The notes below the pieces were generated by a model. The model saw only the letters and a program-made list of their open reading frames with translations, was not told the DNA's origin and did not search any database. Shown here piece by piece: positions 11,708-52,016 of a stretch of 64,000 nucleotides of DNA. Source of the DNA: Asterias amurensis (Eukaryota). Location: contig NC_092661.1 in NCBI RefSeq assembly GCF_032118995.1, forward strand, positions 19,590,621 through 19,654,620. The letters are read 5' to 3'. Numbering within the stretch: position 1 is the first letter of the stretch; every line of letters starts with the position of its first letter. Both the position numbers and the translations under genes were made by a program.

Positions 11708-11721
11708 GGTTTTGATGTTCT

Positions 11722-26044: not shown

Positions 26045-26342
26045 GTAAGTCAGTTATCCGTATATTTTTTAATACATGTAAATGATCTCATTTTACTCCC
26101 AGTGGAGTGACAGAGTGGTCTAGTACCCCAGACTCTAGCCCTGGTGTTGTCAGAGTTGGAGTTGGAGTCCTGGTCACGGTGTGTCATTGAGCGAGACACT
26201 TCACCCTAAATGGTTCATCCCACGGATGGGACATAAATGACATGTAGCAGCACACATTGGCATGGCTTCTTGGACCAGAGAGAGAGAGAGGCAAATGGAA
26301 GTTTTATGAGAGGTGCTTTGACCAATAGGTGGACAAACTGCA

Positions 26343-26425
26343 GCCTTGATTTTGATGATGATGATGATGATGATAACGATGATAATGATGATGATGATGA
26401 TGATGATGATGAAGATGATGATGAG
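26343..26425. repeat. (GAT)n / (GAT,GAA,AAC) microsatellite in PARP4 intron 9
   Basis: gatgatgatgatgatgatgataacgatgataatgatgatgatgatgatgatgatgaagatgatgatgag. Confidence 0.9.
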
Positions 26426-26459
26426 CCAAGTTTAATTTTATTTATTTGTTTGCAAACAG

Positions 26460-26558
26460 GGGTCTTGTTCTACCTAAGGTAGTTGTGGATGATTTTGGAG
26501 GTGAGAGGACCGATGCTGGAATGCTGGGAAGTGGAATTTATTTTGCTGATAGCTTTGG
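26460..26558 (+). CDS. PARP4: PARP4 exon 10 (catalytic)
   Basis: Acceptor gcaaacag|GGGTC, donor CTTTGG|gtaaag. Encodes RGLVLPKVVVDDFGGERTDAGMLGSGIYFADSF. Confidence 0.85.
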
Positions 26559-26914
26559 GTAAAGAAAACTATTATTTAACTTTGAAATTAAAATTAAACC
26601 AACTACTCGCTGACTAACAGTCCAACTGTCATTTGTATGACTGACGCTCTGTATTTTAAGCAGAGGACGTGTTTTTGGACTGAATATTTATTTCCATGCA
26701 CAATCCATAAAATAATAGGGTACCGGAATGAACAGCAACAAATATTAAAGTTTGCTGATGGAAGCAAGGTCCAAGAAAACTGAGGCCTGCAGTGGCTTGC
26801 CTTTGGAAAACCCTTTGTGTATGTAATCATTGCATAACATTGGCAATCTATGTCTACATTGTGTTTATCAATAACTAACTGTTTCCACCATTTAAATGAA
26901 TGTTGTTGTTACAG

Positions 26915-27098
26915 TACAAGTGCCAAGTACTCCCACATTAGCCAAACTACAGGAACTCGACTCATGGCAGTAAACCAAGTAGCACTAGGAAACTGTCATG
27001 ACACAACGGTCTACCAGAAAGATCTCCTGAAGCCACCTGATGGATTCCACAGTGTACATGGCGTCAAGCACAATGGCACCAACCATTCAGACTTTAAG
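26915..27098 (+). CDS. PARP4: PARP4 exon 11 (catalytic)
   Basis: Acceptor tgttgttacag|TACAAG, donor TTTAAG|gtatta. Encodes TSAKYSHISQTTGTRLMAVNQVALGNCHDTTVYQKDLLKPPDGFHSVHGVKHNGTNHSDFK. Confidence 0.85.
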
Positions 27099-27283
27099 GT
27101 ATTATTCATTGGAGTTTTAAAAGACTCATGTCAATGTGTGAGGAGTTGAATCGAGGAGTTAGTTTTTGTTCTTAGAGTTGGAATGAAATGCTACTCCTGA
27201 GAATTTCAACTTTTATAATTTATAAGGTACTACTCCATCAAAGTGAAATTAATGTAAAATTCAAATGGATATAAGTGAGTCTT

Positions 27284-27674
27284 AAAGCCAGTGGACACTA
27301 TTGGTAAATGTCAAAGACCAGTCATCTCACTTGCTGTATCTCAACATATGCATAAAATAACCAACCTGTGAAAATTTGAGCTCAATTGGTCGTCGGAGTT
27401 GCGAGATAACTATGAAAGAAAAAACACTCCTGTCACATGCAGTTGTGTGCTTTCAGATGCTTGATTTCGAGACCTCAAATTCGGAACTAATGAGCTAGGT
27501 CTCGAAATCAAATTCGTGGAAAATTACTTCTTTCTCAAAAACTACTCCACTTCAGAGGGAGCCGTTTCTCACAATGTTTTATACTACCAACCTCCCCCCA
27601 TTACTCGTTACCAAGTAAGGTTTTATGCAAATTATTATTTTGAGTAATTACCAATAGTGTCCACTGCCTTTAAG
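27284..27674. mobile_element. MITE family A (about 370 bp, TIR ...ggacactattggtaatt / aattaccaatagtgtcc...), in PARP4 intron 11
   Basis: Terminal inverted repeats read directly. The same element recurs at 46300-46665, 52171-52549, 53886-54260 (inverted) and 54380-54745 (inverted). Partial copies lie at 17285-17430, 17560-17650 and 48706-48870. Confidence 0.8.
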
Positions 27675-27918
27675 AGCTTTGTTAAATAGAGATAAACAGA
27701 TTCCCTAATGACAAGAGGAAGATTGTTCCTAATTATTTGTGAAGTTTACACCAAATGGTTTTTGACCCATAAATTTTGTTACATTAGGAACATTCGAGGT
27801 GGTTTTCAGGTACTTGACTATAACTGCTATTTCTACTTATTCTATTTCCTGTCACTAGGGTTTTCTTTTACTTATTATACTATTCCTGTCCACAATGGTT
27901 CTTCCTTTTATATGACAG

Positions 27919-28093
27919 GACGATGAATATGTTGTGTACAACACAAATCAACAGCGACTTCGTTACTTGATTGAGTTTTCATTACCCGATGATAAACCGA
28001 CAACCTTACCTGTGTGTGACAATGAGGGCGCTAAGGATGTCGAAGAAGATGTTGATGTGGATAACATTACAGAAGATCTATCAACTCCCATTG
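27919..28093 (+). CDS. PARP4: PARP4 exon 12 (catalytic Glu in DDEYVVY)
   Basis: Acceptor atatgacag|GACGATG, donor CCCATTG|gtatat. Encodes DDEYVVYNTNQQRLRYLIEFSLPDDKP... Confidence 0.85.
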
Positions 28094-28411
28094 GTATATT
28101 TGATTGTACTATATTTCTTTTGCATTTGTTTGATTTCAGCGAGAATTTTAAAGATAATCATAACTTGTTATGGTGAAGTTTAGGGTCGCATCCTGTAATA
28201 TTTCTTTGATGATTGTTTGCAGGCGGCCATAAAAAATTCTTTACAGCCAATAATTCATAAAGGGATATTAACATGATTATGTGAGTATTTGAATAACAGT
28301 GACTTGCAAATTACACAAGCTGGCCAGAGATCAATCACGTGTAACATTTAAGGTCGTTTCTAAACCAACTATCATGTTTTAACAATGATCTTATTCCTGT
28401 TTAACTCATAG

Positions 28412-29110: not shown

Positions 29111-29305
29111 TTAAGGTTTGTTAATTTACAATGATATGATTCAGTTTTTCCCTTTGTCAATGTGGGCTATACGCTGTGTACTGGTCGCTTTTCCAGCTTA
29201 CTTCTGCAGAAATAAAATTGTGAATAGATTACAAAACATAACAAAAAATACTTGGACCAGTGTTTGTATGAATGTTTGATGTTCTCATGCTCTCTACTTT
29301 GGCAG

Positions 29306-29524
29306 GTTGTTGTTCTCCAAGTCTATGCTAATGATAGTGACATGCCAATAGAAGCCAAGTATGTATTTCCCCTGGATGAACAAGCTGCAGTGTGTGGTTT
29401 TGAAGCATTCATTAATGATAAACACATCGTGGGTGAAGTGAAGGAGAAAGAAACTGCTCACAGGGAATATAAAGAAGCAATAAGTCAAGGTCATGGAGCA
29501 TACCTCATGGATGAGGAGAAACCG
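29306..29524 (+). CDS. PARP4: PARP4 exon 14 (VIT)
   Basis: Acceptor ctttggcag|GTTGTTG, donor AAACCG|gtaggt. Encodes VVVLQVYANDSDMPIEAKYVFPLDEQAAVCGFEAFINDKHIVGEVKEKETAHREYKEAISQGHGAYLMDEEKP. Confidence 0.85.
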
Positions 29525-30130
29525 GTAGGTCATAGTTCAAAGGTCAATTGTTGCACTTGTAGATGGAGTTTTGAGCGAGTTGAAGCGAGGGAGTTCAAAT
29601 CAGTTTATGATAGAATTGTATGAGAATTCCAACAGCTTAGCCACTGAGTTTATCCCATGAAAAACAAACACCAAGTTTTACTTAAATTGATTTGTACTTT
29701 TGTTACTGGTTGTGATAGGTTCACCTCCAAAATCTGACTGTATGAATAAAACTGTCCCCCTATTTACTTGGTGCTAAAAATCCAAACACAAGCAATCATG
29801 TCCTGATAGTTTACCCAGGGAGGCCATCCCTCCCTCCCTCCCTAAAGCGATGGAGTGAAAAACAACAAGCAACTCCGTGCTGCAGGAGCGGTTTGGAACA
29901 TTGATTGAAATTGCTGACTGATCTGAGATAAATGTGAAATTCATCTTATCTGCTGCTTTGCAAGCTGCAAGCAAACATAAATAAATTGCAATAAATGTTG
30001 TAATGATTATAAGGTAGACTTTTTATAGGAAAACACAAGGACTGATTTCTCTGTCAGAAACTATTGGAGTTGTTGTAGACTTTTTGTGATTTTCTTTAAA
30101 TAATTGTTCATTGTTTAAATTTCTGTCAAG

Positions 30131-30336
30131 GATGTTTTCACTGTGAGTGTTGGAAATCTCCCGCCACTTACGACTGTTGTCATCAAGATAACCTACGTTG
30201 CTGAGCTCGCCGTTGATGGGGATAAGATTCTCTTTACGTTACCAGGAAGTGTAGCACCATGGAGGAAAGACGACGCTTTAGCTCAGGAGACTCAGACAGA
30301 TGTTAAAACAGTCAAAGTCAATTCAGACACAAAGAG
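30131..30336 (+). CDS. PARP4: PARP4 exon 15 (VIT)
   Basis: Acceptor ttctgtcaag|GATGTT, donor AAAGAG|gttagc. Encodes DVFTVSVGNLPPLTTVVIKITYVAELAVDGDKILFTLPGSVAPWRKDDALAQ... Confidence 0.85.
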
Positions 30337-30508
30337 GTTAGCAATATTCTGATCAGGAAATATTGACTGGGATTGGCTTTTTAAGTCACTAATCTTGAAA
30401 TTTGTTGAAAGAAAAAAAAAGATAACAGCACAACAGTAACATGATAGTAAGATCTTTTAAAATGTGTAAATAATGTCTATTCACTAAATTGTCTTTGATT
30501 TGTTTCAG

Positions 30509-30590
30509 AGCTTTATCAGTTCATGTTGCCGTGGAGATGCCCTATGACATCCGAAGCTTGGAGTCTCCAACTCATCCAATCAAACAAAAG
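30509..30590 (+). CDS. PARP4: PARP4 exon 16
   Basis: Acceptor tgtttcag|AGCTTT, donor CAAAAG|gtgaga. Encodes ALSVHVAVEMPYDIRSLESPTHPIKQK. Confidence 0.8.
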
Positions 30591-30704
30591 GTGAGAGGAA
30601 AAAATATTTTCAAAGCTTCAGATCATTTGGAAATTTATTGCCTTCTGAAAACTACTTTTTTTTCTCTCCCTTTTTTACATGTGTGTTTATTTCTTTGTTG
30701 ACAG

Positions 30705-31035
30705 CAAACAGCAGCTAAAGCAACTGTCTGCCTGTCAGAAAAGTGTAGCGGACTTGATGATGGATTCCAACTTCTGATTGGCTTAGCAGAGATTCATGTT
30801 CCCCGAATGTGGGCGGAGAGACACCCCACAGAGAAGGACAGCCAAGCATGCATGCTGACCTTCTACCCTGAGTTTGATGCTAACAGCTCTAGCCAATCAG
30901 AAGTGGTGATTCTTTTGGACTTGTCCAATTCAATGCGAGGAGGAAGCAATCTGCAAGATGCAAAGAAACTTGTGATGTTGATCCTTCATCATATGGCCAA
31001 GGACTGCAAGTTCAATATCGTTGTTTTTGGAACAG
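30705..31035 (+). CDS. PARP4: PARP4 exon 17 (vWA N-terminal half with the DLSNS MIDAS motif)
   Basis: Acceptor ttgttgacag|CAAACAG, donor GGAACAG|gtaatt. Encodes ...MWAERHPTEKDSQACMLTFYPEF...EVVILLDLSNSMRGGSNLQDAKKLVMLILHHMAKDCKFNIVVFGT. Confidence 0.85.
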
Positions 31036-31614
31036 GTAATTAACAAAGAAAACAGTTCCTTTATTCTTTAGAATGAATATTGTTTTTACTTCTACGATTT
31101 CAAGATTGGAAACTGGTCTGGATTTCAGAATGAATCGCTATTCCTATCATGTCATCAACACAAACTGTGGTTTTCATTGTCGCAGTGTGACGAGAAAATT
31201 AATTTCAGTCTACTGGAGTGTCATGGCCGAGCAGTCTATGTGCACTATGTTGAAGCTCCGTCCTTTACAGAGTATGGGTTCGAATCCTGACCTAGTAGTT
31301 AATAATGATGCGTTAGTCTTTGAGCAAGATACGTATACAATATTTGAAGGGACAAAATGCTCTAGATCCAATAGATTGGTATGCACATAAAAGAATAACA
31401 AAACATTTATCTCGGTTGAGAAGGGGTTTACCTTGTGGTTTATCCAAGCACCCTTTTCTACAGGTTTCCTCAGACATCCAAGTTACAGTGATATATTTAC
31501 TTTTGAAGCATTCTTTGTTTCATTACTTGAAATTAAAAATGTTAATAATAACTGTATGTTTATTCACTTCCCTGGATTGTATTAATGCACACTGATTTCA
31601 TCTTCCTTCCTCAG

Positions 31615-31873
31615 ATTTTGAAGAGTTGTTTCCTCAAAGCAAAGTCATGAACAAAGAGACAATGAAAACAGCTCAGAACTTCATGCAAGGTCTTTCAGCC
31701 ACTATGGGCAACACAGATGTCTGGCGCCCTCTTAAGGCATACTTTATGCTGAAAACTGGACAACTCAGAAATATCTTTTTTATATCTGATGGTCATGTCA
31801 GCAATGAAGAAGCCACGCTGGAAACGGTTCGTAAGAACTGTCGTCACACAAGGGTCTTTACATTTGGTATCAG
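31615..31873 (+). CDS. PARP4: PARP4 exon 18 (vWA)
   Basis: Acceptor ttccttcctcag|ATTTTG, donor GTATCAG|gtattc. Encodes FEELFPQSKVMNKETMKTAQNFMQGLSATMGNTDVWRPLKAYF...FFISDGHVSNEEATLETVRKNCRHTRVFTFGI. Confidence 0.85.
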
Positions 31874-32452
31874 GTATTCGTGAATTTCTCACTCATTAAT
31901 CTGGATGAAAATTCCTTTCATATCAAAATCATTTTATCCGTCCAATTCATACATTAACAAGAAATAACACTTTCACTCAATATTTTATACAAAGTAATGG
32001 GACTATGCTTCTCACATTATTAAATTATACTTCGTGTCTTTCAAAGAGTTGTTGTTCTTAGGGTCCTGAGCATTCCTTGAACCATCTCAACTCCTTAGAA
32101 GTATGCACCAGCAGCATAAGTCACTCCTTGGTGATGAGAAGCAACTAAGTGTTTTTAAATAATAATAGAAATAATAAGATTTTCTCAAGGACACAAGTGT
32201 GATGACTGGCACCCACAATTGTATCTCTTTTCTAATACATTTGTATTTGTTGCTCAAAACCAGTTGATAACACTACGTAGAAAAATTGCAAAAACTAAGT
32301 ATACTATTTTTTGATGGAAATGTTTATGTAAAATCACCTCATCTTACAGAGCTCATATTAATAAGCAAGAATCAGGAATCCTGTACCTAATACATCATAA
32401 TAATACAAACTGCATTCAGTTTAATTCTTGTTGTGGTTAATTTGATTGACAG

Positions 32453-32552
32453 TGCTACAGCTAATAAGTATCTCCTACGTGCAGTGTCCAATACTGGAGC
32501 TGGTGCCTTTGAGTTCTTTGATAACAAGACCAAGTCCAAATGGGAAGGCAAG
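32453..32552 (+). CDS. PARP4: PARP4 exon 19
   Basis: Acceptor gattgacag|TGCTAC, donor GGCAAG|gtatgt. Encodes (S)ATANKYLLRAVSNTGAGAFEFFDNKTKSKWEGK. Confidence 0.8.
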
Positions 32553-33105
32553 GTATGTATTTAGATGATCATAGCTAAGGATGGGGTTTCTTCAGCTGAA
32601 GGATGTATATTAATTTTGGTTACTACCCATACACCGATATGTGTTAGCACTGTATACTCAGTACTTTCTCGAGTCCTGTGAAAAAATATCGCAGGCATGT
32701 TACTCGGGTGGGATTCGAACCCATGACCCTTGCAATTCTAGAGCAGTGTCTTACCAACTAGACTTAAGCCATGTGCAATTTGTGTGTGATTTGTCTTAAT
32801 AGCCAAAGCATTTTTTTTGGTTTTTATTAGATGTTGACCAGTTTTCATTATATCAGGTTTTTGACAGTGATACTTAAGTTAATTAGGGCTCAATGTCATT
32901 AGATACTAATAACAAATTACAGATTGGAGCTTGCAGATAACCTTTATTGTTCAGCTACTAAGCAAGTTTTATTCTGTGCTTCACATACATTTTTGCTCAG
33001 TGAATCGTCGAACAAGGATCATTCCAACAGATCAGAAAAATTGCAATTATGTTAAAGAAGTGTTTAAACAATGTTTGATTTCATCTTGCTGATTGCTTCT
33101 TACAG

Positions 33106-33276
33106 GTCAAGACACAGTTAAGTAGAGCCTCAGAGCCGGTTCTGTCGTCTGTCAACGTCAAATGGTGTCAGTTTGACGATGATGCTCCAACTCCGATCCA
33201 AGCACCCAATCACATCACTTCATTATTCAGTGGTGCTCGGCAGGTTGTTTATGGCTTTGTACCGTATTGCACTCAG
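33106..33276 (+). CDS. PARP4: PARP4 exon 20
   Basis: Acceptor gcttcttacag|GTCAAG, donor ACTCAG|gtattc. Encodes VKTQLSRASEPVLSSVNVKWCQFDDDAPTPIQAPNHITSLFSGARQVVYGFVPYCTQ. Confidence 0.8.
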
Positions 33277-33514
33277 GTATTCAAACAAGCTCTTAAATTC
33301 AAGTGTTTATTTTATTTTTTAAAGATAATTATTGAAACTTAAAACTTTGCTCTTTTTTTTAAATGTTGTTGAAATTGTATATCATCGTAACAAGGTTAGA
33401 TTTTGTTTTTGTATGGGTTTTTCTTGATACCATATCATCGGTTTCCAGATATATTTAGACATGATTGGAAATTGTCATAATACTGCATGAAGATTATTGT
33501 TATTGATTTTCCAG

Positions 33515-33595
33515 GCTACATTAACAGCAACAATTAATGGCCATGAGGTATCTACAATGGTATCAACTCATGAGCTTAGCATCACACGTGGAAAG
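33515..33595 (+). CDS. PARP4: PARP4 exon 21
   Basis: Acceptor gattttccag|GCTACA, donor GGAAAG|gtaagc. Encodes ATLTATINGHEVSTMVSTHELSITRGK. Confidence 0.8.
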
Positions 33596-33957
33596 GTAAG
33601 CACTTTGCAAAACGTTAGAAATACTTAACATGCCAGAAATACAGGCTCAAACCCCTTCTCTTCTTATTAAGTCTAACTTGGTTCTTTTGCATGCATAAAG
33701 TAACATGGCTTTACGTCCCTTAGGAAGGACGGAGCAATAATGGTAAAGTATCTTGCCTAAGTGCCACGACCAGAACTCAAACCAACTTTCCACTGTAATA
33801 TTAGAAACACTAGAGATTCTGCCCCATTGCTCTTAACCGCTCTGTCAAAACATGCCACTATGAACTTACTCCCTCAGTATTGTCTGTTTTTAATTGCGTG
33901 TTCAACCAGTTTTTACTTTTAATTTTCCATTTCCAATTGATTGTTTTCTGTTTCTAG

Positions 33958-34140
33958 ATTTTGCATCAGTTGACAGCCCGCAACATCATTCGTGATTGGG
34001 AGGAAGGTTCCTTAGCAACAGATCACACCCAACATGAGGCAAGGAAAGCTGAGCAGAAGACGTACATCGTCAGCTTGAGCAAGAAGTATTCCATTGTTAC
34101 TCAGTTTACTAGCTTTGTGGCTGTGGAGGTCAGAGATGAG
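33958..34140 (+). CDS. PARP4: PARP4 exon 22
   Basis: Acceptor tgtttctag|ATTTTG, donor GATGAG|gttagt. Encodes ILHQLTARNIIRDWEEGSLATDHTQHEARKAEQKTYIVSLSKKYSIVTQFTSFVAVEVRDE. Confidence 0.85.
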
Positions 34141-34745
34141 GTTAGTGAAGCTTTCTGGGTGTGAAGTTGCCTGGTTTTGCTCCTGCGATATACACACATG
34201 CACAATACGCTAGAGTTCATGCAGACAGAGGTGTGATCTGAACTCAAGGCCTTTGCAATGCTAGAGCAGATCCACTTGACCACCAAGCTAGCCCAATACT
34301 AGAGGCAGCTCAAATCCTTAGTGTTAGCGATGATTTATGAGATGTTACTTTAGTCAGACTTGTTCTCAGCTTTCAAAATTTTGTTGATGTTTTTCACAGG
34401 AAGGTAATGTACTACAAGAGTGGTGACTCAGTCTTTAAACTTTGAAGGGTTGTGGCCATGTGGCTATCGCACAGCATGACCCTTCCAGTTTTAAACAGCA
34501 TTTATAATAAGACCTCATCCTCCTCTTTTATTCCCTCATTGAAACCTTGCATCAATAGGTCATAATTCCTTGAGCTTCCTACATACTGCGCTGACTGGCT
34601 GCTGAGTAATAATAATGTTATATTGTAAAATGATGTTCATTTTGTAAGTCATCAACATTTGGTATTGTTTAATATATTTGACCAGGGTAAAGATGAATGC
34701 GTGGAGTCTGTCAACTTTTCAGTTAATTTTTGTTTCTTTTGTTAG

Positions 34746-34871
34746 AATGAAGGTGAAAAAGTGAGGTCAGGGGTCAATGTAACTGATCTATTGAAGGAGG
34801 AGGAAGTTGATTCTTTAAAATATTTGAACTGGCAGAATGATCATTCCCAAGATGCACCTGAAGAAACCATG
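34746..34871 (+). CDS. PARP4: PARP4 exon 23
   Basis: Acceptor ttttgttag|AATGAAG, donor ACCATG|gtaagt. Encodes NEGEKVRSGVNVTDLLKEEEVDSLKYLNWQNDHSQDAPEETM. Confidence 0.7.
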
Positions 34872-36597: not shown

Positions 36598-37574
36598 GTA
36601 AGTAACACTGGTAGTAAATTGGTTTGTGTAGGGTGGGGGTAGATATACACAGGTGGCCATAACAAAAGGGGCAAGAGGTCCACAGTCTGCACAAAGGGAA
36701 AACAATTCCACAGTGGAGTTTGACGTACTAGGGTGATCCACAAGGAAATTTGTACACAAAGTCTATGTGGGTTCTTAATTACAGGGAAATGCAGACAATG
36801 GGAGAACAAAGAGAATTCCTCGGTACACCATGAATATACATGTTTGTGTGTGTGTATACAGCCCATATTAAAAGCTGATTGAAAACTGCTCACCAACTAA
36901 AATAAAGTGAGGTACAAATGCAAATGCAGGTAACAATTGTCAATCGCCAGACACATCAAACTTAGCGGAGATTTTCTAATTAGCTTAATGAAAACTCACC
37001 ACACAAGCACACTGGTGTAACAGAAGAGGACAAGGAAATACACTCGGAAGAGGTATAAGATGAAAAAAACAACAGGAAGGGGGATTGAGATGGAAAGTTA
37101 GTGGTTACCTTTGGTAGATATATATCACATCCCAATTACACAGTAAAAAAAAGTGCTTTGAAAGTATGGTTTCATTTTTATCAACAATGTGAGGTTTCTA
37201 AGGAAATTAGGCACCACAAAAGAAATCCCTTAGAAAACAGAACACCACACAAACCTGCATGTTTAATGTATGAACCTACTCTATGGCAGGATAGATTTTT
37301 AACATCGTTACTAAATAACAATAAATAATAAATCCTTCTTGTAAAGTGCATTCTGGCAAGGCCCCAATGCACTGTACAGGCATGAAACTATTTTAAAGAA
37401 CACAAACAAATTATTCAGCTACACATTGTTATACAAAAACGCATAAATAGAAATTTTACAAGATAAAGAAAAACAACTGGCAGGAGAAAATGTTTGACAA
37501 GTCACATGCTTAGCAGATGTGTTTTAAGTGAACTCTTGAACAAATCTTGTGTTTCTTTTTTTTTTTAACTACAG

Positions 37575-37742
37575 CTATATCTCAACCCCTAGAAGATGAG
37601 GATATTATGGACACATATTCTTTAGGACTCCCTGAGGTGGAAGGGGAGTACGAGTTTCCAGTAGAAGCTCAGCAAGCAATGTCAAAGATCAGACGTCGCT
37701 TCTTTTCATCAGAGGGGGGTAAAATAAAGGGAGAAAAGAAAG
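37575..37742 (+). CDS. PARP4: PARP4 exon 26
   Basis: Acceptor ttttttaactacag|CTATATC, donor AAGAAAG|gtagga. Encodes ISQPLEDEDIMDTYSLGLPEVEGEYEFPVEAQQAMSKIRRRFFSSEGGKIKGEKK. Confidence 0.55.
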
Positions 37743-38265
37743 GTAGGATGTAAAACATTAGTTTAATTATACTTCAGTTGAAATGCATTGTTGGGGACTA
37801 ATACTTCTTTAGCCACGTCCATAAAAATTGTGTCCATCCACGGTTTTATTTTTCAGAGCGTGTTAGAGCTTCTTGAGTAATTGTTTTATTTAGTTCCAGG
37901 ATTTCATTTCGTCACATGAGAAAATTGAGTCGGCATCACTGTGATTCACAAAGCCATGAACCATGGCAAAAAATCTGACTTGACCAACATAAATACTCTC
38001 TTGGAAACTATAACTGTGTGTGTCAAATCAGTCTTATTCATATATCACTTCCATAATTTACATTACAGTGTTAGAAAAAATGCTTTGAAAATAATTATGT
38101 GGGGTTCTTTAGGAAAGTAACTGCTAAAGAAATCCCTAGAAAACAAAGACATCTCAGAAAAAAACACCTGGCATCTGCATCTCGAATTCAACAATGGTGT
38201 ATTCTATGAAAGATAGTATGTTATCATTGGTACTTTGTATTAAACTACAGCTGTATTCAGGAAAG

Positions 38266-38442
38266 AAGAAAGTGACTCTGAAGAGGATATGTATGATGGA
38301 TTCTGTGCTGATAATGAGATTAAAGAGATTAGTGCAGACTACGATGCGGTACAAGTAGAACCAGAGCAAGAGAAACCAAGAATCATAACCAAGAGACACC
38401 TTAGGGGAGCTGTAAAAGGAAGTATGAGGATGGATCATCCAG
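38266..38442 (+). CDS. PARP4: PARP4 exon 27 (an alternative acceptor at 38261 is possible)
   Basis: Acceptor caggaaag|AAGAAAG, donor CATCCAG|gtaagt. Encodes ESDSEEDMYDGFCADNEIKEISADYDAVQVEPEQEKPRIITKRHLRGAVKGSMRMDHP. Confidence 0.5.
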
Positions 38443-39165
38443 GTAAGTTCAATTATTCTACAATTGAAATGCAGCTTTAGGAATGACACTTATTTAAGAG
38501 TACGGTACCTACCTTTTGAAACATCAAGTCCCATGTGTCATGTCAGTCTCAATCAAATTTGGTGAGTTATTCACTCACTCACGTCAAGTTGCCAGCTTGT
38601 GGTGATGATCTGTTGCTGACATTGCACACATCTCTGCCCCGAGCAAGTTACAACCTCTGCTTAATGTTCTCTTTCCAGTATTGACCAGTAATGGCCAGTA
38701 TATGTGGATAAAGGTCAATTGCTTACAATTCACTGGCTCGTCTGCCAAATTAGTACAATAAGCAGAAAGCATTTTATTATTGGGCATCAATGCACTTGGT
38801 ATTTTAAAACCATTTCTCTTTTGTGATTTAATTGCTTGCGTGTCGATTTCACAAAGATAGTCTTAGGAGTTATTAAAAACTCAAGGCTAGTCCTAAGTTA
38901 GGACGAGTAACTTGACCTAACTCGAGATGATACTAGTCTCAACTCTTTGTGAAATCCACCCTGGTTCTTTAATACGCATACACTACATATGGGACCATCA
39001 GCTTTGACATCCCACCTGAAGGACAAACCAATACTAGTTTAGTGTCTTGCGTATGAACACAAGTGTCATAACCGATAAACTAAACCAGTTGACACAACTT
39101 TGACATGACTTATTGTAAACAATAAACAACACTTTACCATCATCCATACAAATTTATTCTTTTAG

Positions 39166-39287: not shown

Positions 39288-40267
39288 GTAAACAGCTTTT
39301 TATTATAACACCCTTTCAAAGATTCTACCTTGTGATAAGTTGAGAACACATCACATGTCTTATTTTTTTTTGAAAGCCACAAGCTATACTCTAAGCAACC
39401 AATTGTTCTTCACCCATGGAAATGAGTGTATTACACCTACAGCAACCAGTCTTCTACACCCATGGAAATGAGTGTATTACAGCAACCAGTGTGCTAGCAG
39501 CAGTAGCTTCGTGGTAACCAGATGTCAAGGCACAATGTTGACCCAACTCACCTGACGCCATGTTCAGAATAATCTTGCATACCCCATATTGGTTGTCAAT
39601 GTCATTGTGTGTTATTCAATGAAGTGCGCATTTTAGGCAATGCGGCGTTTACACGTAAACCTATTGCGAACCAAAATGATGGCACAGTCGCCGCGTATAA
39701 CTTGCGTGGAAGGGGTCAATATGTATGGGGTGTTAAAAAACAAATGTTTACTGCTTTTACTGTGCATGGTTTAAACTACCACTAATCAGTGATATCTTTG
39801 TTCAGGACCTTGTCACTAGAGATTTACCCATTCAGTTCCCCTTGCAATCTATTGCTTGATATCTGAAACAAAAAGTTGTATCATCTTAAGGTGATGTCCC
39901 CTGGCTTTCCAGGCTGTATCGTAAACTTGGGTGTGATCCCTGATATTTGTTTTAGTATGTAAGTTCTTATTTATGAAATCAATCTTGGTTTCCAAGTGAG
40001 ATTTCACAGAAGCCTCTTCTTAAATATTTTCTGACTCATTATTCAATTGTGGGTGGTAAAAATACATGATTTGAGAAGTGTCTATATTTTGTCCTTTCTC
40101 TGCTTGCCACAACCCTTCAATGAAATTTGTATTACATGGAAATTTGTATTTAGGTGGAAAAACAACAACAGCAACAGCAGCAAGCTGTTGATGTTAAGCA
40201 GTAAATAAATGTAAAATTTTTGTAATTCAGCCTTTTTGCTGTGAGGACAGTTTTTTTAATAAACCAT

Positions 40268-40270
<3 letters not shown>

Positions 40271-40316
<46 letters not shown>
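40271..40316. repeat. (ATCT)n microsatellite (about 11.5 copies) forming the polypyrimidine tract of the PARP4 exon-29 acceptor
   Basis: tctatctatcta...tctatcag|ATG. Confidence 0.9.
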
Positions 40317-40318
40317 AG

Positions 40319-40528
40319 ATGTTGTCAAGCATTCAATCAGAAGTTACATGTGATGAAAAAAGTAAGAAGAAGAAGAAGAAGAAGGCGGGACCCAAGTTGG
40401 ATGAAGATGTCAGAACAGACTCTTGGGAAGCAAGTGAGGTTCAACAACAGCCCATGTCTAACATATACAGCATTTTTCATTTAGATTTATTGCCTGAATT
40501 GAAAAGTGTCGATGAGACTATGCCTAAG
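40319..40528 (+). CDS. PARP4: PARP4 exon 29 (the acceptor's polypyrimidine tract is an (ATCT)n microsatellite)
   Basis: Acceptor (tcta)n tcag|ATGTTG, donor CCTAAG|gtaagc. Encodes MLSSIQSEVTCDEKSKKKKKKKAGPKLDEDVRTDSWEASEVQQQPMSNIYSIFHLDLLPELKSVDETMPK. Phase 0 to 0. Confidence 0.55.
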
Positions 40529-40835
40529 GTAAGCATTAATTATATCAGTGAGGGCCTACCATTATTTGTGTACCCCTTTGACATCAGTTTCAGTGACTTT
40601 CACATACAACTAAATCTAAAGTCAATACGATTTGCCTGTTAATATTTGTCAATGTAAGAACAACTAATTTATGAAAACTTTTGTTTGTATTGAGTGGGAT
40701 TAAACAAGTTGTTAGAACCATTGATGTTAGTATACATGTATGCTAGTTTGGGAACTAATTTTGTTTGTAAAAAGACAAACAGTTTTCTTGTTTACCATTG
40801 TCTAAAAGCTTGTGACTATGTTTTTTTTTTCTCAG

Positions 40836-42147
40836 GGCTTTGAGAAATTCAAAAAACAAGTGGAAGGTTCAAATAAAAAGAAGGAAGTAACAGCTGGTTC
40901 GGAGGCAGTATTTGACAGTTCAATGTCAGAAATACACAAAAGCTTGTTGTCTGGACCTAAAGCTTCCCGGCAATCACTGCCACATCTGTCACTCATGTCA
41001 TATGCATTAGGATCATCTGTGGAAAAAGGACCTCCATCACTACCATCCCCAATCCCAAGTGCATCTGGATTATCTGTAACCGATAGAGGTGAGTCGCCAG
41101 TCAACACAACATTCCAAGCAGCAAAACAAACTGAGGCATCTACATATGGAGAACTTGGTTTATCTCAGCAGCCAGCTATGTTTAAGGGACTTCCACCACC
41201 CACACCACTAGCACTTAGAACTGGATCAGTGGGATTTGGAGAAGCCAAGGCTGGTTTGTTTGGTGGACCTCCACCACCACCACGAGCCATTGTGTCAGTG
41301 GGATTTGGAGAAGCCAAAGCAGGTTTGTTTGGTGGACCTCTACCACGACGACCAGCACCTAGGACAGGGGGAATTCAAGACACCAATGCAGGTTTGTTTG
41401 GTGGACCATCACCACCAGCACCTAGGGTAGGGCGATTTGGAGAAGCCAGGTCATTATCGTTTGGTGGACCACCACCACCACTAGCACCACCACCTAGGGC
41501 AGGGCGATTTGGAGAAGCCAAGGCAGGTTTGTTTGGTGAACCTTCACCACCACCACCTAGGGCAGGGCGATTTGGAGAAGCCAAGGCAGGTTTGTTTGGT
41601 AAACCTCCACCACCAGCACCACCACCTAGGGCAGGGCGATTTGAAGCCAATGCAGGTTTGTTTGGTGAACCTCCACCACCACCACTACCACCTAGGGCAA
41701 GGCGATTTGAAGCCAATGCAGGTTTGTTTGGTGAACCTCCACCACCACCACTACCACCTAGGGCAAGGCGATTTGAAGCCAATGCAGGTTTGTTTGGTGA
41801 ACCTCCACCACCACCACTACCACCTAGGGCAGGGCGATTTGAAGCCAATGCAGTGTTGTCAGCACCAGCACCACCGCCACCACCACTACCAGCATCACCA
41901 CCACTGGCAACACCTATGGCAGTGGTACTTGGAGTGGTTGGCAAGAATCCCCTACAAGAATTACGATTACATCCTCAAAGAAGATCTGCAACTACTAGTA
42001 CCTCTAGAAGATCTACTAGTACCTCTGAAACCTACAAAGCTGCAGGGGAAAGGAGTACCTCTGGAGCAGACCGTACAAACAGTGCTGATAAGTTGTTGAT
42101 GGCCTTGAGTACCACTTTTGAAGACAGACTCTGTGATATTGACAAAG
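40836..42147 (+). CDS. PARP4: PARP4 giant C-terminal-region exon (437 codons) with a Pro-rich tandem repeat array
   Basis: Acceptor tttttttttctcag|GGCTTTG, donor GACAAAG|gtaaga. Single ORF: GFEKFKKQVEG...SVGFGEAKAGLFGGPPPPPRA...(RAGRFEANAGLFGEPPPPPLPP)xN...TSTSRRSTSTSETYK... This parallels the S/P-rich low-complexity region of vertebrate PARP4. Confidence 0.7.
41225..41910 (+). repeat. coding tandem repeat array inside the PARP4 giant exon (unit about 63 bp / 21 aa, about 10 copies)
   Basis: The units read (A/G)GRFGEAKAGLFGG/EPPPPPxPP. The last three copies (about 41640-41830) are near-identical at the DNA level (ccaccaccaccactaccacctagggcaaggcgatttgaagccaatgcaggtttgtttggtgaacctcca). Confidence 0.85.
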
Positions 42148-42405
42148 GTAAGAATATAATGCCTCATTTCAATGTTGTTAAGTTTATGGTTTGCAATGAA
42201 GAATTACTGTAACTACTGTAAAGAGCTCAAATGCATTAGAGCCAACTCAAATAAGTATCGTTCATTAGGAATGTTTATCATTCCTCAATATGTTGTACAT
42301 GTACATTTAAAATTGTTATACCTTTTGATTTTCCGTTATGGAAATTCTGTTTTGACAGTAATGTTTATCGTTTTTGATGTTTTTTCTTTTTTATTAAAAA
42401 TGCAG

Positions 42406-42491
42406 ATCTGGACATTGAGACCAGTGTTGGGATTAGTGATGGTAGAACTAACATCGATGTAGTTATGGTTCTTCTTACACAACAAAGGAAG
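42406..42491 (+). CDS. PARP4: PARP4 exon 31
   Basis: Acceptor aaaaatgcag|ATCTGG, donor AGGAAG|gtagga. Encodes (D)LDIETSVGISDGRTNIDVVMVLLTQQRK. Confidence 0.55.
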
Positions 42492-42981: not shown

Positions 42982-43081
42982 GCTGGATTTTGGTCATTGG
43001 GGTCTGTTTTTGAGTCAGTTGTGGGGGTGAGGTGCTCATACATTTCACAGATGTTGATTGATGCTGGTGTAAAATCACTAG
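42982..43081 (+). CDS. PARP4: PARP4 exon 32
   Basis: Acceptor ctttttttcag|GCTGGA, donor CACTAG|gtaagt. Encodes AGFWSLGSVFESVVGVRCSYISQMLIDAGVKSL, like the vertebrate PARP4 DGFWKL...KGIQSLG block. Confidence 0.65.
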
Positions 43082-44465: not shown

Positions 44466-44711
44466 GGAGAGACGTGGCTCGACTTCTTGAGCAGCTTGTA
44501 ACAACATACCTCGTCATACTCTGCCTAAACAAGGTTCTGAACCTCTCCTCAACTCGCCACTTCAATAGCAAAGAAAGAGAGAGTACTGTAGAAGCGGTTG
44601 TGAATGCAGAGAGATGGGTAGCCCAGGTCGAGAGGGATCACCCATCCATGGCTCGACGCCTTGAACTTGGAAGTAGTTGGCATGAGGTCTGTACCAACAT
44701 CTTTAATGGAG
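44466..44711 (+). CDS. PARP4: PARP4 exon 33 (MVP-interaction-region homologue; one or more terminal exons not found)
   Basis: Acceptor ttttattacag|GGAGAGAC, donor AATGGAG|gtaaat. Encodes RDVARLLEQLVTTYLVILCLNKVLNLSSTRHFNSKERESTVEAVVNAERWVAQVERDHPSMARRLELGSSWHEVCTNIFNG, like vertebrate ...ICPRLELGNDWDSATKQLLG. Confidence 0.7.
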
Positions 44712-46299
44712 GTAAATAGGTTGCACAGGTGGCGATTTGAACCAAGACAAGATTAAAAGGATAGTTACATGATTAAAGGCAGGGTGTACTTCTGGTAATC
44801 TTCAAAGACAAATATTCTCACTTGGTGTATCCCTGTATATGCATAAATTAAACTTGGGTACAATTGGTTTTTAAAGTTGCACAAATATAATTGAAGAAAA
44901 AACCCACCACCATTTCATAAAAGTGTGTGCTTTCAGATGCAAGTGAAAAGGGTTTGTGAAAACTACCTCTTTCTCTAAAACTACATTTCTTCAAAGGGTG
45001 TATTTCAAAATGTCACCACCCAACAAAATGAACTAGGACACAGGTTGAATTATTGTGGTGTATATTGGATAGCAGAGGAGAGCAACTATTTGGCTCCAAC
45101 ACCAATCATAAAGTATCTTGTCAGACCAATTAGGAAACCAATGAAATAAAAATCTTTGACTTGATTCAGAATAGTGCCAAGAGAAAAAAACAATCTGTTT
45201 CCCCCAAAACACATCTAAACAAGAAAAACATTAATAGACAGTGTGTATATTTTGCTGTGAGATAAAGCTGTCCCCTTGTATATTTGATCCCTTTTTCTAT
45301 CATTTTTATTTTCATAATGAAATCCGTTATTGTCTTTCAAAATTAACAACAGATTATAAAGAACAACTCAATCTTATGTAAACAAGAATAATTTTGTGAA
45401 CAAATAAATTGTTAGAAATATAAATATAATTGACCCTTTGCATACTGCCAACAAGAGTTAAACAGCGCCCTCACTCAGTCTAAATGAAGGCCTCTCATTG
45501 GCTGATAGTTTTGAATGGAGCGTATACTTTTGCATGATTCCATTGTTTGACCTATGCATTGGTTGGCCTATGTAAGGGGCATGTGTATAATGTGGATGTC
45601 ATTTATATTTTTTTATGAATGCAGATAATGTATTACTATGGATACATAACAAATGGTAGACTGTACTTTTTTTATCTTACAATATTGCTATTCAGGACAG
45701 TTCAACCATTTAGAATAATATAGTGTTAAAAAAGAGTATGCTAACATTTAATAAGGCAAATTAGATACATTATAGTCAAGCCAATTTTTTACATATAATA
45801 AAGCAAATTATATGCAATAATCCCTTTCCACTCTTTTTTTCTATAAATGGATATGTATTTGTTTGTACTTGTTTTATGCCTCTGAAGAAGGTCCGGTTTG
45901 GATTGGAAGCTAAGGCCACCTACCCTATTCATTATTAATAATGCAAATTAGATACATTTAATGTAAATTAGATACATATATTACTGATAATTAGGTACAT
46001 ATAATTATGCAAGTAGATACATATAACGCAAATCAGAATTACCATAATCATTGAGACAGTGTGCCTTGTTTTCTAATTGACGAAACAACAGCTATAATTG
46101 GAAATATATAATATTGCCCTTACTGCTCAAAAAAATAATATGAAAATTTGACTGTTCAGTCCGTATCCATATTAAAATAAAATGTGTTTATGGTTAAAAT
46201 TGTTTTTACAAACAACTCGTTCAGCTTCATAGGAGTAAGAGATTGCCTAGTTTAAAATGTTATTAGATTGTTTCTCGGGTTTGATAGAACCTATTTTAA

Positions 46300-47697: not shown

Positions 47698-47888
47698 ACC
47701 CAGGACTGGTCAATTTAGATACTACAGCCTTGTGGCACTAGTGCGCGTGCAGCTATAGATGTATGCTCTATAAAACTTGTTGAGAAACATCTTACGTTTC
47801 AATCAGTTGATGTTCCTCAATACAGGCCATTAATTTGTGTGCTGGACAAACCAAACTTTTTATGGTACAGAAATCTTGGGACAGAACA

Positions 47889-48395
47889 ATGAGTTTTCTC
47901 AATGTCTTAATGGCAATAATGGCGGCCATGACTGGAATGGGAGTAGATGCGGAATGTGCCACGCCCTACTGCCCACCACCATGGCACGGCTTTGAAGGCA
48001 ATTGTTACCAGTTTATTGATCTTCAGAAGTCATGGCTTGAAGCTGAGAAATACTGCCAGATGTTATCCCACCCAGGCAAGATGGTTCATCTAGCATCCAT
48101 TCACAGTAGCAAGGAGGATGCCTTCATCGGCAGTTTGGTCAAGTCTTTAAAGCATTCCAAGAAAACGAAGGCAGATAAGGGCGAGTCTTATTGGATCGGT
48201 TACCATGACATTGGACACGAGAGTGTGCATCAATGGGTTGATGAGACGGCTGCTGTCTACTGCAATTGGGCTACAGGCGAACCTAATAACAACCCTGAGA
48301 GTGAGAACTGCGTGGAGAAGTACAAACAATATGCATCTCAAAAATGGAATGATTTTGACTGTAACGCAAAACGACAGTTTGTCTGCAAATTGTGA
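47889..48395 (+). CDS. secreted C-type lectin (single CTLD, Ca/mannose-type EPN...WND motifs), intronless
   Basis: The ORF begins MSFLNVLMAIMAAMTGMGVDA (signal peptide). CTLD cysteines and landmarks follow: CPPPWHGFEGNCYQF...WIGYHD...CNWATGEPNNNPESENCVEKY...QKWNDFDCNAKRQFVCKL. The caller's upstream start at 47835 is less likely than the ATG at 47889. Confidence 0.8.
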   Translation: MSFLNVLMAIMAAMTGMGVDAECATPYCPPPWHGFEGNCYQFIDLQKSWLEAEKYCQMLSHPGKMVHLASIHSSKEDAFIGSLVKSLKHSKKTKADKGESYWIGYHDIGHESVHQWVDETAAVYCNWATGEPNNNPESENCVEKYKQYASQKWNDFDCNAKRQFVCKL

Positions 48396-50070: not shown

Positions 50071-50761
50071 AACGTCTCGAGGTGGCGGTGAAACTTTCGT
50101 CTCAAACGTAGCCTTCACGTGCTGTGGAAGCCCCCCCCCCCCCCCCCCCCCATTCGGCAAGTTCCTTCAACCAAAGTGACTCTTTTATAACACTCCCGTG
50201 ACTTTCATGACCTGGTATTAAAGTTGCATGGTCTGATTTTCGCCGAATGAATTTTTACAGATGATGCTGTTTGCAAACGAAAAACAAACAATCTCTTTTT
50301 TGTACTAAGCCCTGTGCCACGAGCAACCACCCGAAATCAAGTATTTTGTTGATGTTTGTTGTTGTTTGTTAATGACCACTTTAATGGCGGATTTCTTGTG
50401 TGCTATTGAAGTTGAAGCAAGATATAAAAAATAAATAGAAATGTGTTTGAAACAAATTTAGGCCGATCTCTTCTAAAAATTAGTGACAAGTTGATCGGAC
50501 ATGAATCTCGGCTGATAGGCCCATGAGTGTATTTAGGAAGTAATTTAGACTGCATGTTATCTGGACTAGATAATACTCCTACGTTGTGGAGAGGATGTGC
50601 TGTGTTGACATTTTATTTTAAACCCCATGATCAAATGATCAAAGTTCAGATTGTGTATTGAGCAATGTGTGTACAATAAAATGTAACTAGTGCTGTCTGA
50701 TTAAACTCCATCCCAATTGGTTGTAAAGTGTTCTAAGAAAAGGTTTTTTATAAACACAACA

Positions 50762-51134
50762 ATGTTCACCTTCATTGTGGCAGTCTTAACAGCCTGTGTC
50801 AGCGGATACTGGCTTGGGCAACGGGTGATTGGATTTTATTTCAGAAAGCGCTTGGATCCATGGGGTAAAGCAGTTCTCGTTTCTGGTTGTGATACGGGCT
50901 TCGGTAACGCCCTGGCTAGTCGACTTCATGGTCTTGGATTCACCGTGTTTGCTGGGTGTTTGGACTCCAAATGCGAGGGGGCTCTAAAGCTGGTGAAGGA
51001 GGCTAAACAAGTGGAACGAGATGACGGAAGATCGAAAAGACCACGTATGAAGGTGATTCAGATGGACATTTGCAACGATAAGGAAGTCGCTGAAAGTGTG
51101 AGGACTGTTTCAAGTTTACTACCAAAGGATACAG
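50762..51134 (+). CDS. SDR (retinol dehydrogenase / 17beta-HSD-like, SDR9C family) exon 1
   Basis: Encodes MFTFIVAVLTACVSGYWLGQRV (N-terminal membrane anchor) ...KAVLVSGCDTGFGNALASRL (TGxxxGxG Rossmann motif)...KVIQMDICNDKEVAESVRTVSSLLPKDT. Donor ACAG|gtaacg. Confidence 0.75.
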
Positions 51135-51296
51135 GTAACGTATTATCCCACTCTCATTGTCTGTGCCTTTCCGTTGGAAATGTTTCAACATAATAACCCA
51201 AACACTCTAACAAACACAAATAATGGGAGGGAGTTTTCTTGATACAATACTCTTTTTCTTTTAAACTGATAACACTTGACCCTTTAATTCCTGCAG

Positions 51297-51449
51297 GATT
51301 GTGGGGTATCGTCAACAATGCTGGTCTGTCGACCTTCGGAGAGGTGGAGTGGTGCAATTTGGAAATGTTTCAACGTGTAGCTGACGTCAACATATGGGGA
51401 GGGGTCAGAGTGGTGAAAGCGTTCCTTCCACTCATCCGAAGAGCAAAGG
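51297..51449 (+). CDS. SDR exon 2
   Basis: Acceptor ttcctgcag|GATTGTG, donor AAAGG|gtgagt. Encodes [51 protein letters not shown] (NNAG motif). Confidence 0.8.
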
Positions 51450-51549
51450 GTGAGTACCAAATAAAAATACAAAAAAGAACTCAAAAAAGCTTGTGTTTTG
51501 TCTGAAGGTTTTGTTTCAAAATCAATATTTTATGTGTCTAACCCAACAG

Positions 51550-52016
51550 GTCGAATTGTCCAAATGACCAGTGGCCTTGCTCGTCAAGGTCACCCTGGAC
51601 GTTCCTGTTACGTCCTCTCCAAGTATGCCATGGAAGGCTTCTCTCAGTGTCTGAGGTATGAGATGCGGCGATGGGGTGTACACGTTAGTATCATCGAACC
51701 TGGAAACTTCATTGCTGCAACAGGGATCTTTACACCAGAGAAGATCCGGCAAATCGCCAATAAGATGTGGGATGGGATGAGTGAAGTGACAAGGCAAGCA
51801 TACGGCAAGGAGGCATTCGATGCTCAGGTGGAAACCATGAGTTATTATAGTGGAGTGGGAACCACAGACACCGCGCCTGTTGTAGATGCTATGGTGGCGG
51901 CATTAACAGATTCACAGCCCAGGATTCGGTACGAGCCTAAGGACTGGTACTGGAGACTACGGACTTTTGTAATGTCAATATTGCCTCAAGAAATTGGTGA
52001 TTGGTTCTACTATTAG
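51550..52016 (+). CDS. SDR exon 3 (catalytic YxxxK, stop TAG at 52014-52016)
   Basis: Acceptor cccaacag|GTCGAAT. Encodes RIVQMTSGLARQGHPGRSCYVLSKYAMEGFSQCLRYEMRRWGVHVSIIEPGNF...DWFYY*. Confidence 0.8.

Follow-up and report, generated by a model that had tools for sequence, protein, structure and literature searches.

The PARP4 gene and its linker exon

This study examined a tandem repeat array in the coding sequence of a gene of Asterias amurensis, within a window of 64,000 nucleotides (contig NC_092661.1, positions 19,590,621 to 19,654,620, forward strand), from the first letter of which all coordinates below are counted. The gene is an invertebrate orthologue of PARP4 (vault PARP), and the array falls within the linker by which the ITIH-like body of the protein is joined to MINT, the domain that docks on the vault. 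The assignment to PARP4 had been proposed in an earlier note on the same sequence, and has since been borne out by Pfam domains, by a match to the human C-terminus, and by a fold match to PARP4 in the human vault. The parts of the gene that are referred to below are as follows.

21235 to 28173, + strand: exons for the BRCT, PARP regulatory (helical) and PARP catalytic domains (Pfam)
29300 to 34871, + strand: VIT, vWA and ITIH-like core exons, 10 in the model (Pfam, relatives, exon model)
40836 to 42147, + strand: linker exon carrying the array, 1,312 bp, 437 codons plus 1 base (splice sites, open frame)
41086 to 41094, + strand: internal donor-like site GAG/GTGAGT, at which the exon would end at 41088 (consensus match only)
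42406 to 42491, + strand: exon 3' of the array exon, which completes the split codon and ends '...LLTQQRK' (exon model, human boundary match)
42982 to 43081, + strand: MINT-domain exon, 'AGFWSLGS...GVKSL' (phmmer, AlphaFold and Foldseek)
44466 to 44719, + strand: last MINT-domain exon, which holds the stop codon, '...RRLELGSSWHEV...GGK*' (phmmer, AlphaFold and Foldseek)

Between 21.2 and 31.9 kb, Pfam domains follow one another on the forward strand in the order BRCT, PARP_reg, PARP, VIT, and vWA. BRCT_2 (E=2.8e-4) fell under its curated cut-off, since an exon fragment alone was scanned; PARP_reg scored 35 bits, PARP 30.3 and 20.2 bits on successive exons, VIT 88.8 bits, and VWA_3 37.1 bits. 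The best relatives of the VIT/vWA region were the annotated PARP4 proteins of amphioxus, crinoids, sea urchin, molluscs, cnidarians, and vertebrates, the closest annotated core being that of Branchiostoma belcheri (68%), followed by those of crinoids, oyster, and sea urchin (58-60%). The C-terminus of the gene product was matched by phmmer to residues 1576-1700 of human PARP4, the MVP-interacting domain (MINT or MVPID), with an E-value of 1.3e-5, and the equivalents of human R1689 and S1614 are conserved in the alignment. AlphaFold modelled this C-terminal domain with a predicted local distance difference test score (pLDDT) of 85-97, and the top PDB match of the model in Foldseek was 9bw6_B, which is PARP4 in the human vault (probability 1.00, target-normalised TM 0.70). 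The upstream BRCT, PARP, VIT, and vWA domains, combined with an in-frame MINT match in both sequence and fold, therefore identify the gene as a PARP4 orthologue. In the human vault structure, MINT docks on the inner wall of the vault and the chain N-terminal of it extends into the lumen, and the MVP residues that bind PARP4 have been argued to be vertebrate-specific (PMC12280208). For sea-urchin vaults, bands have been reported that may be VPARP homologues (PMC550661).

An 18-exon model running from VIT to the stop codon, and using canonical AG/GT sites only, comprised 1,391 codons with zero internal stops, and placed the repeat exon in phase with the MINT exons. The array exon is the largest in this modelled part of the gene, and its extent agrees with the 1.3-kb, 437-aa exon that had been described previously. 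It lies within a 468-codon open frame, between an AG acceptor at 40834-40835 that is preceded by a T10 tract (T10-CTCAG) and a GT donor at 42148-42149 (AAG/GTAAGA), and it exits in phase 1, after which the exons at 42406-42491, 42982-43081, and 44466-44719 continue in frame. The open frame over the array proves little on its own, because the array is stop-poor in two of the three forward frames (0 stops in the coding frame, 2 and 17 in the others), as it is in one antisense frame; the coding evidence is carried by the flanks. A single open frame extends across 137 codons 5' of the array and 106 codons 3' of it, and the chance of the flanks staying open is about 2e-4 and 1.4e-3, respectively, given a stop frequency of 0.060 per codon in the window. 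The GC content is 44-45% in the flanks within the exon versus 28-31% in the adjoining introns, with a step at both predicted splice sites.

It is extremely unlikely that the interval is intronic, untranslated, or an assembly artefact. The scarcity of stops in several frames of the array would fit such an explanation, as would the candidate donor at 41088, but the flanks are open in one frame only, the GC content rises on entering the exon from either predicted splice site, the MINT exons follow without a break in phase, and the large linker exons homologous to it are used constitutively, as seen in human expressed sequence tags (PMC4038475) and in eight of eight scallop isoforms. The donor-like site is located 128 nt 5' of the array and has the same phase as the 42147 donor, and predicted splicing from 41088 to 42406 could in principle remove the whole array in frame. 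An AG within the repeat unit ('CCACCTAG/G') was rejected as an acceptor for this donor, as the phases were found by hand to mismatch, with 1 base left over at the donor and 1 contributed by the acceptor.

The linker as the counterpart of human exon 30

In vertebrates, PARP4's largest exon was the subject of work by Daugherty et al. 2014 (PMC4038475). In human this is exon 30, which specifies about 360 residues (aa 1223-1582) that are almost fully disordered; it is 'highly variable' in sequence and length, is present in all isoforms and human expressed sequence tags, and holds all of the positive selection detected in PARP4 of primates, bats, and other vertebrates (human-rhesus dN/dS 1.75). The mammalian exon also retains nine invariant residues. 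Suskiewicz et al. 2023 (PMC10450202) describe the segment as intrinsically disordered and as joining the ITIH-like region to the MVP-interacting domain. In the Asterias gene, the exon junction 42491/42982 ('...LLTQQRK/AGFW') aligns with human E1582/D1583 ('...LLSLQTE/DGFW'), which makes the 1.3-kb repeat exon and the following 86-bp exon together the positional counterpart of human exon 30. The predicted structure is similar in kind, with most of the exon product at pLDDT <50, helices only at the two ends of the exon and outside of the array, and the array itself modelled as coil with zero secondary structure (10-residue block-mean pLDDT about 38-66).

Among the 35 orthologues in which both the core and MINT were recognised, the length of the linker between them ranged from 3 to 1,036 aa. 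Comparison of the lemur linker with the full-length human PARP4 chain in the PDB gave zero matches at E<=1e-3, a result to which composition filters may contribute.

Anatomy of the tandem array

Codon-aware parsing resolved the array into 10 in-frame, head-to-tail units at 41217-41891 on the forward strand, with lengths (units 1 to 10 in order) of 22, 26, 21, 24, 21, 23, 22, 22, 22, and 22 aa. The modal unit is 66 bp or 22 aa (range 21-26 aa), and not the 21 aa given in the earlier note, while the figure of about ten copies in a coding exon has been confirmed both by the parsing and by a hidden Markov model (HMM) of the unit, which recovered precisely these ten in the gene model and zero elsewhere. 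Tandem Repeats Finder reported 41233-41841 with a period of 66, 9.1 copies, 83% matches, and a score of 706. A 29-nt core of the unit, allowing <=3 mismatches, occurs 8 times, always within the array, and was found 0 times in 100 shuffles. The consensus of the unit is R-A-G-R-F-(G)-E-A-K/N-A-G-L-F-G-G/E-P4-5-(L/A)-PP; in essence it is one GLFG, often accompanied by a second FG, joined to one proline run, and amplified tenfold. The region consists of 27% P, 16% G, and 14% A. Charged residues account for 18% of the spacers of the array (22 R, 5 K, 13 E, and 1 D) and N+Q+S+T for 7%, and the net charge of the array as a tether is +13. Two features of the array region are listed below.

41628 to 41825, + strand: youngest block, units 7-9, 3 x 66 bp (pairwise unit identity)
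41375 to 41944, - strand: Gly-rich antisense open reading frame, 189 aa (by-product of the stop-poor repeat, with no sign of being a gene, as had been supposed)

Units 8 and 9 are identical at 66/66 nt, and one G/A change sets unit 7 apart from both, which upholds the proposal of a very recent duplication in the interior of the array. The near-identical trio reported previously is real, but it is not formed by the three 3'-most units: unit 10, at the 3' end, is degenerate. Units 5-6 share 92-94% identity with units 7-9, while the figures for units 1-4 and unit 10 are 65-87%, and every length difference between units is a multiple of 3. Head-to-tail units, a near-identical interior, decayed edges, and in-frame length changes are the characteristics of a coding minisatellite subject to concerted evolution.

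Lineage specificity of the repeat unit

An exhaustive HMMER scan of 1.84 billion representative proteins with the C-terminal 988 aa of the gene model detected 523 relatives, the named ones being PARP4 from sponge to primate. BLASTP of the array and of the non-repeat flanks of its exon found zero similarity among the best 150 of the 523, and the unit was shared by none of them, which disposes of the idea that it is equally present in all PARP4 orthologues. A search of 5.8 billion word-indexed proteins with the non-repeat flanks returned 361 candidates, none of them with E<=0.01; nothing scored when the whole exon product was used, a search that was saturated at 8,000 candidates, very likely through poly-Pro words, and is uninformative. 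An HMM of the non-proline half of the unit gave no score better than shuffled controls when run against the orthologue linkers. One amphioxus segment (protein P0121, '...ASFGKKSAGLVGGPPG...') was considered as a single-copy ancestor of the unit, and was rejected when this HMM scored it at 0.0 bits, the shuffled level. As far as public data go, the unit appears to be unique to its lineage.

The open reading frame of the array exon was not itself on record, but environmental and genomic DNA gave matches to other parts of the gene. A 1.3-kb sequence of an ENA marine metagenome (L001; ERZ23498428, scaffold SOLA22-1...520918) shows 95% DNA identity to the window, introns included, which indicates that its source was the same or a sister species. 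It covers window positions 37235-38905 only, and so stops short of the array, as do a contig from a related species (L002), which ends at the exon near 34.8 kb, and a distant genome assembly (L003). The metagenomic sequence also lacks window positions 37982-38451, which hold a predicted, frame-neutral exon of 192 bp (38251-38442); this exon may show presence/absence polymorphism or may not be a real exon.

The array exon is without a detectable homologue although the collection includes a related species with 78-87% exon identity. Such rapid change might be expected if the linker were a target or decoy for pathogen factors, with repeat turnover as a route of diversification, and the restriction of positive selection to the homologous exon, seen in primates, bats, and further vertebrates, points in the same direction (PMC4038475; PMC10450202). 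However, no pathogen partner is known in any species, relaxed constraint would also give rapid divergence, and such a role of the linker is considered quite unlikely.

Arrays and motif enrichment in other PARP4 linkers

Strong internal periodicity, with periods of 7-89 aa, was detected in 12 of the 32 orthologue linkers that have both core and MINT, and in 6 other long proteins, giving 18 of about 45 long orthologue linkers with comparable periodicity (mollusc, cnidarian, sponge, fish, amphibian, and primate). Unit sequences were read out for most of the periodic linkers. They are unrelated to the Asterias unit, and proline runs and (L/S)FG are the building material of many, as in the following examples.

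Argopecten irradians (bay scallop), XP_069141939.1: 27 aa x 7, Pro-rich, 'PMLGKDFTSSGPPRPPRAPSAKPPPPP', in all 8 RefSeq isoforms
Platichthys flesus (flounder), XP_062257934.1: 18 aa x ~8, 'MPPPPPPPFALTSIQASP'
Gouania willdenowi (clingfish), XP_028291259.1: 33 aa x 3, 'PPPTGFSFGSGEGFGSALPLSTPGLLFGATPPP', ending '...GLLFGATPPP'
Hydra vulgaris, XP_065649889.1: x 2.5, '...VLPPPPPPPRQSMYLFGAKQ'
Liolophura sinensis (chiton), XP_064611003.1: x 15, 'QTSGFGSAPA'
Lemur: Pro-rich linker with the short unit 'LLPPPPLPPLAPLPGSA' x 2, and 'CGLFGSFP' about 30 residues beyond

Among the motifs seen in further orthologue units are 'GFSFG' and 'SLFGAS', and the amphioxus linker has an FG-rich zone followed by a Pro-rich zone. 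Judged by their sequences, the arrays in these linkers are each an independent, lineage-specific expansion. The view of the earlier note that the array is not a described feature of vault PARP is accordingly correct in part: no paper on tandem arrays in PARP4 was found, but the exon itself has been published as hypervariable, disordered, and under selection (PMC4038475), and Pro-rich arrays are present in the annotated PARP4 of scallop, flounder, and Hydra, with a short Pro-rich duplicate in lemur.

The dipeptide FG is over-represented in these linkers. It occurred 148 times in the 32 linkers, versus 45 expected from composition, and with duplicates collapsed it was still the top-ranked dipeptide (122 versus 39 expected). 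Against shuffles within blocks of 15 or 30 aa the excess was 2.4-2.5-fold, and 0 of 300 shuffles reached the observed number. With shuffles as the control, the excess of FG across the 32 linkers was 2.4-3.1-fold, with PP second at 1.4-2.2-fold, whereas the folded N-terminal parts of the same proteins showed no FG excess (52 versus 67 expected). The usual context of FG in the linkers is [L/G/S]FG[S/A/G]. A search of the literature on PARP4 with tandem repeats or FG repeats found nothing relevant, and both the linker arrays and the FG enrichment are seemingly undescribed. This enrichment across phyla is the more interesting by-product of the work, and is a lead at the level of the family rather than a property of the window alone.

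Some further observations were made on the orthologue linkers. In the PARP4-like protein of the sponge Sycon ciliatum (XP_065198502.1), about aa 1582-1660 of the linker consist of 11 tandem heptads 'PSYSPTS', which closely resemble the heptad YSPTSPS of the C-terminal domain of RNA polymerase II. RefSeq lists 8 PARP4 isoforms of 1,885-2,154 aa for the nemertean Tubulanus polymorphus (P0164 cluster), and isoforms of very different lengths, numbered up to at least X12, for Hydra vulgaris (P0143 cluster). In some lineages, then, the linker or its vicinity seems to undergo much alternative splicing, in contrast to scallop, the isoforms of which all carry the array.

Proline and FG motifs of the array

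The array had been described previously as bearing a signature like that of formin FH1 regions, implying a cytoskeletal or adaptor-binding function. Its 225 residues include 8 runs of >=4 prolines, 5 of them PPPPP, and the short motifs amount to 5 PxxPx[RK], 4 PPLP, 7 PPR, and 5 XPPPPP tracts. SH3 class II and WW group II-III ligand motifs (PxxPx[R/K], PPLP, PPR) are therefore present, as motif matches only, and binding of proline-recognition domains by the array is plausible on this basis. Related behaviour has been seen in mouse, where GST-VASP-EVH1 pulled Parp4, along with Mvp, from dendritic-cell lysate, and Parp4 was no longer recovered once an inhibitor occupied the FPPPP-binding site; its authors give Parp4 as a new, unverified VASP-EVH1 interactor (PMC9581539). 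It follows that proline-ligand behaviour of the PARP4 linker is not wholly undescribed. The lemur linker contains 5 matches to the EVH1 core [FLWY]PPPP (all LPPPP), and that of Hydra contains 3.

If the array were an FH1- or verprolin-like module, its PPPPP runs would recruit profilin, SH3, WW, or EVH1 domains, and would link vault PARP to actin or to adaptors. Against this, the Asterias linker has no [FLWY]PPPP and its array no run of >=6 prolines, the longest being 5. A Pfam scan of the array exon gave no match to Drf_FH1 with the E-value limit raised to 10; neither an FH2 nor a WH2 domain was found in the gene; and the exon product and downstream exons are without any formin Pfam match, the downstream domain being MINT. 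The motif matches are short and degenerate, and the human linker lies inside the vault lumen (PMC12280208). This explanation is regarded as unlikely. The term 'FH1-like' fails as a statement of family membership, while in the sense of 'works like' FH1 it describes a possible property, and the implied cytoskeletal or adaptor function was overstated, being a possibility that the sequence does not by itself entail.

The earlier note overlooked the second half of the unit, GLFG/FG, which is the source of the only Pfam signal on the array. Nucleoporin_FG (PF13634) scored 30.3 bits (E=7.6e-7), which is just below its cut-off of 32.2 bits, and 15.1 bits when the whole exon was scanned. With 8 GLFG and 14 FG in a region that is predicted to be disordered, the array has multiple GLFG of the kind that characterise GLFG nucleoporins, FG is the top enriched dipeptide in the linkers of many phyla, and the orthologue motifs 'GFSFG', 'SLFGAS', 'QTSGFGSAPA' x 15, and 'GLLFGATPPP' have a similar character. 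The GLFG half might then act like an FG-nucleoporin domain, cohesive or binding transport receptors, and could give rise to a selective phase within the lumen of the vault or to a link between vault and nuclear pore. On the other hand, cohesive GLFG domains of the Nup98 type have uncharged spacers rich in N, Q, S, and T, and the spacers of the array differ in both respects; no nucleoporin anchoring domain was found, and the protein is otherwise PARP4. The Pfam score is sub-threshold and falls by half in the context of the whole exon, and no paper was found that links PARP4 to FG repeats. A nucleoporin-like mode of action is judged distinctly improbable, and the likeness of the array to FG nucleoporins is one of resemblance, not membership.

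Origin and significance of the array

The array is probably a lineage-specific coding minisatellite that has recently expanded in a disordered PARP4 linker of the exon-30 type. The interior units 5-9 are homogenised (>=92% identical) and the edge units decayed, a pattern that unequal crossing-over usually leaves, and this process or replication slippage would account for the origin of the array. Its expansion would lengthen the flexible, net-basic tether between the ITIH-like body and MINT, and would at the same time multiply (L)FG and proline runs ending in PxxPxR or PPLP, both of which are over-represented in animal PARP4 linkers. The result may be a multivalent, low-affinity interaction surface, the valency of which would be set by copy number.

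Several points weigh against this reading. The use of the array exon and its constitutive inclusion are predicted from gene structure rather than from transcripts. The copy number in the assembly could be wrong or imprecise, because identical units such as 8 and 9 assemble poorly. The position of the human linker in the vault lumen limits its access to cytosolic partners (PMC12280208), and the FG/PP enrichment shows that the motifs recur in the family, not that they function in the Asterias linker. Finally, the three codon positions contribute about equally to the differences between units (22/24/24), giving no sign of purifying selection on the repeat peptide, so that the array could be a neutral passenger. 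The even spread fits relaxed constraint, and is also compatible with positive selection as described for the vertebrate exon.

The neutral alternative is a serious rival to a minisatellite with motif function, and is quite possible, though not the favoured explanation. An expansion by slippage or crossover would simply have been tolerated in a disordered tether, of which only rough length and flexibility matter, with no specific partners for its motifs. Besides the lack of any excess of third-position differences, the wide range of orthologue linker lengths (from 3 to 1,036 aa) and the unrelated units of the arrays in other species agree with this, as does the finding that tandem repeats and indels build up in long internal exons, for the most part where the protein is disordered (PMC12457776). 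It is less easily reconciled with the over-representation of FG and PP across independent lineages, which persists once duplicates are collapsed and when local shuffles are the reference, or with mammalian exon 30, in which there is positive selection and nine residues are invariant (PMC4038475). The recurrence of these motifs, together with the selection and invariant residues of exon 30, argues for some function in the linker region as a whole.

A broader version of the minisatellite reading is that the PARP4 linker across animals is more than a spacer, and forms a multivalent FG and polyproline scaffold on the inner wall of the vault, its valency tuned by lineage-specific tandem amplification of the kind seen in Asterias. 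This is speculative, and rather improbable as it stands. If true, the scaffold could produce a phase of FG-like kind, cohesive or selective, inside the vault, or could recruit partners of the EVH1/SH3/profilin or transport-receptor type, and hence provide a mechanism for retaining vault cargo or for docking to the cytoskeleton.

The Asterias gene indicates that a hypervariable linker of the exon-30 type predates vertebrates, and repeat turnover provides one concrete mechanism for its variation in length. The survey of orthologues, in which (L/S)FG and proline runs recur in the linker, supplies experimenters with defined peptides, and the array, if polymorphic in copy number, would be a natural allelic series for the effect of linker length and valency.

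Other features of the window

Shortly 5' of the repeat exon there is a perfect (TATC)12 microsatellite at 40269-40316 and an (AAG)7 run at 40364-40384. The latter would encode 'KSKKKKKKKAGPK', which resembles the basic stretch, like a nuclear localisation signal, near the start of human exon 30, in a candidate small exon at 40341-40528, the acceptor of which is uncertain (40341 or 40485). Between linker exons, at 39390-39490, is an intronic tandem repeat with a unit of 46 bp (or 23 bp) in 2.4-3.1 copies.

The upstream neighbour on the reverse strand is REV3L, the catalytic subunit of DNA polymerase zeta, recognised by REV3_N (Pfam, 47 bits) at 11552-11788. It includes a single open exon of 1,516 codons at 2-4549 (- strand) that runs off the start of the window and has no Pfam domain, and which is reminiscent of the giant disordered exon of vertebrate REV3L. 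Downstream of PARP4 lie a C-type lectin domain gene (Lectin_C, 74.9 bits, 47811-48392, + strand) and a short-chain dehydrogenase/reductase of at least two exons (50705-52013, + strand). A second tandem repeat of coding appearance is present at 63422-63775 in a reverse-strand frame, with about three copies of a ~38-aa unit ('NTIGNSAPKLLDSDYGGVPDPMSDLLGSFHTLTKP') and no Pfam match, adjoining an exon with an ion-transport domain at 62497-62826 (- strand).

Comparison with known systems

With formin FH1 regions, the (GPPPPP)n sequences of VASP, and WIP/verprolin, the array shares short proline tracts separated by short spacers, and its 'GPPPPP' and 'EPPPPPLPP' are like profilin- and SH3-binding sequences. 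It differs in that its gene is without FH2, WH2, EVH2, or Drf_FH1, in having only 4-5 consecutive prolines, in spacers that carry GLFG and charged residues, and in adjoining a domain that docks in the vault lumen. With the GLFG domains of Nup98, Nup100, and Nup116 it has in common a GLFG about every 22 aa, predicted disorder, and a near-threshold Pfam match, but its spacers are Pro-rich and charged, there is no anchoring domain, and its score is under the gathering cut-off.

The arrays of scallop, flounder, clingfish, Hydra, and chiton are closer parallels, as they occupy the same linker in the same family, consist of near-identical and hence recent tandem copies, and contain proline runs and/or (L/S/G)FG, although their unit sequences and periods are unrelated to those of Asterias. 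The closest correspondence is with vertebrate exon 30 itself, which shares the gene and the position within it, predicted disorder, a 3' boundary just before 'xGFW', variable length, and a lack of sequence conservation. The Asterias gene has an extra intron of 258 bp (42148-42405) that cuts off the last 29 codons, and it carries a young array of 10 units, whereas the published work on the vertebrate exon covers substitutions and length and not tandem arrays. The array is, then, an ordinary case of tandem expansion in an exon the hypervariability of which has been reported before, rather than a cytoskeletal module of a new kind.

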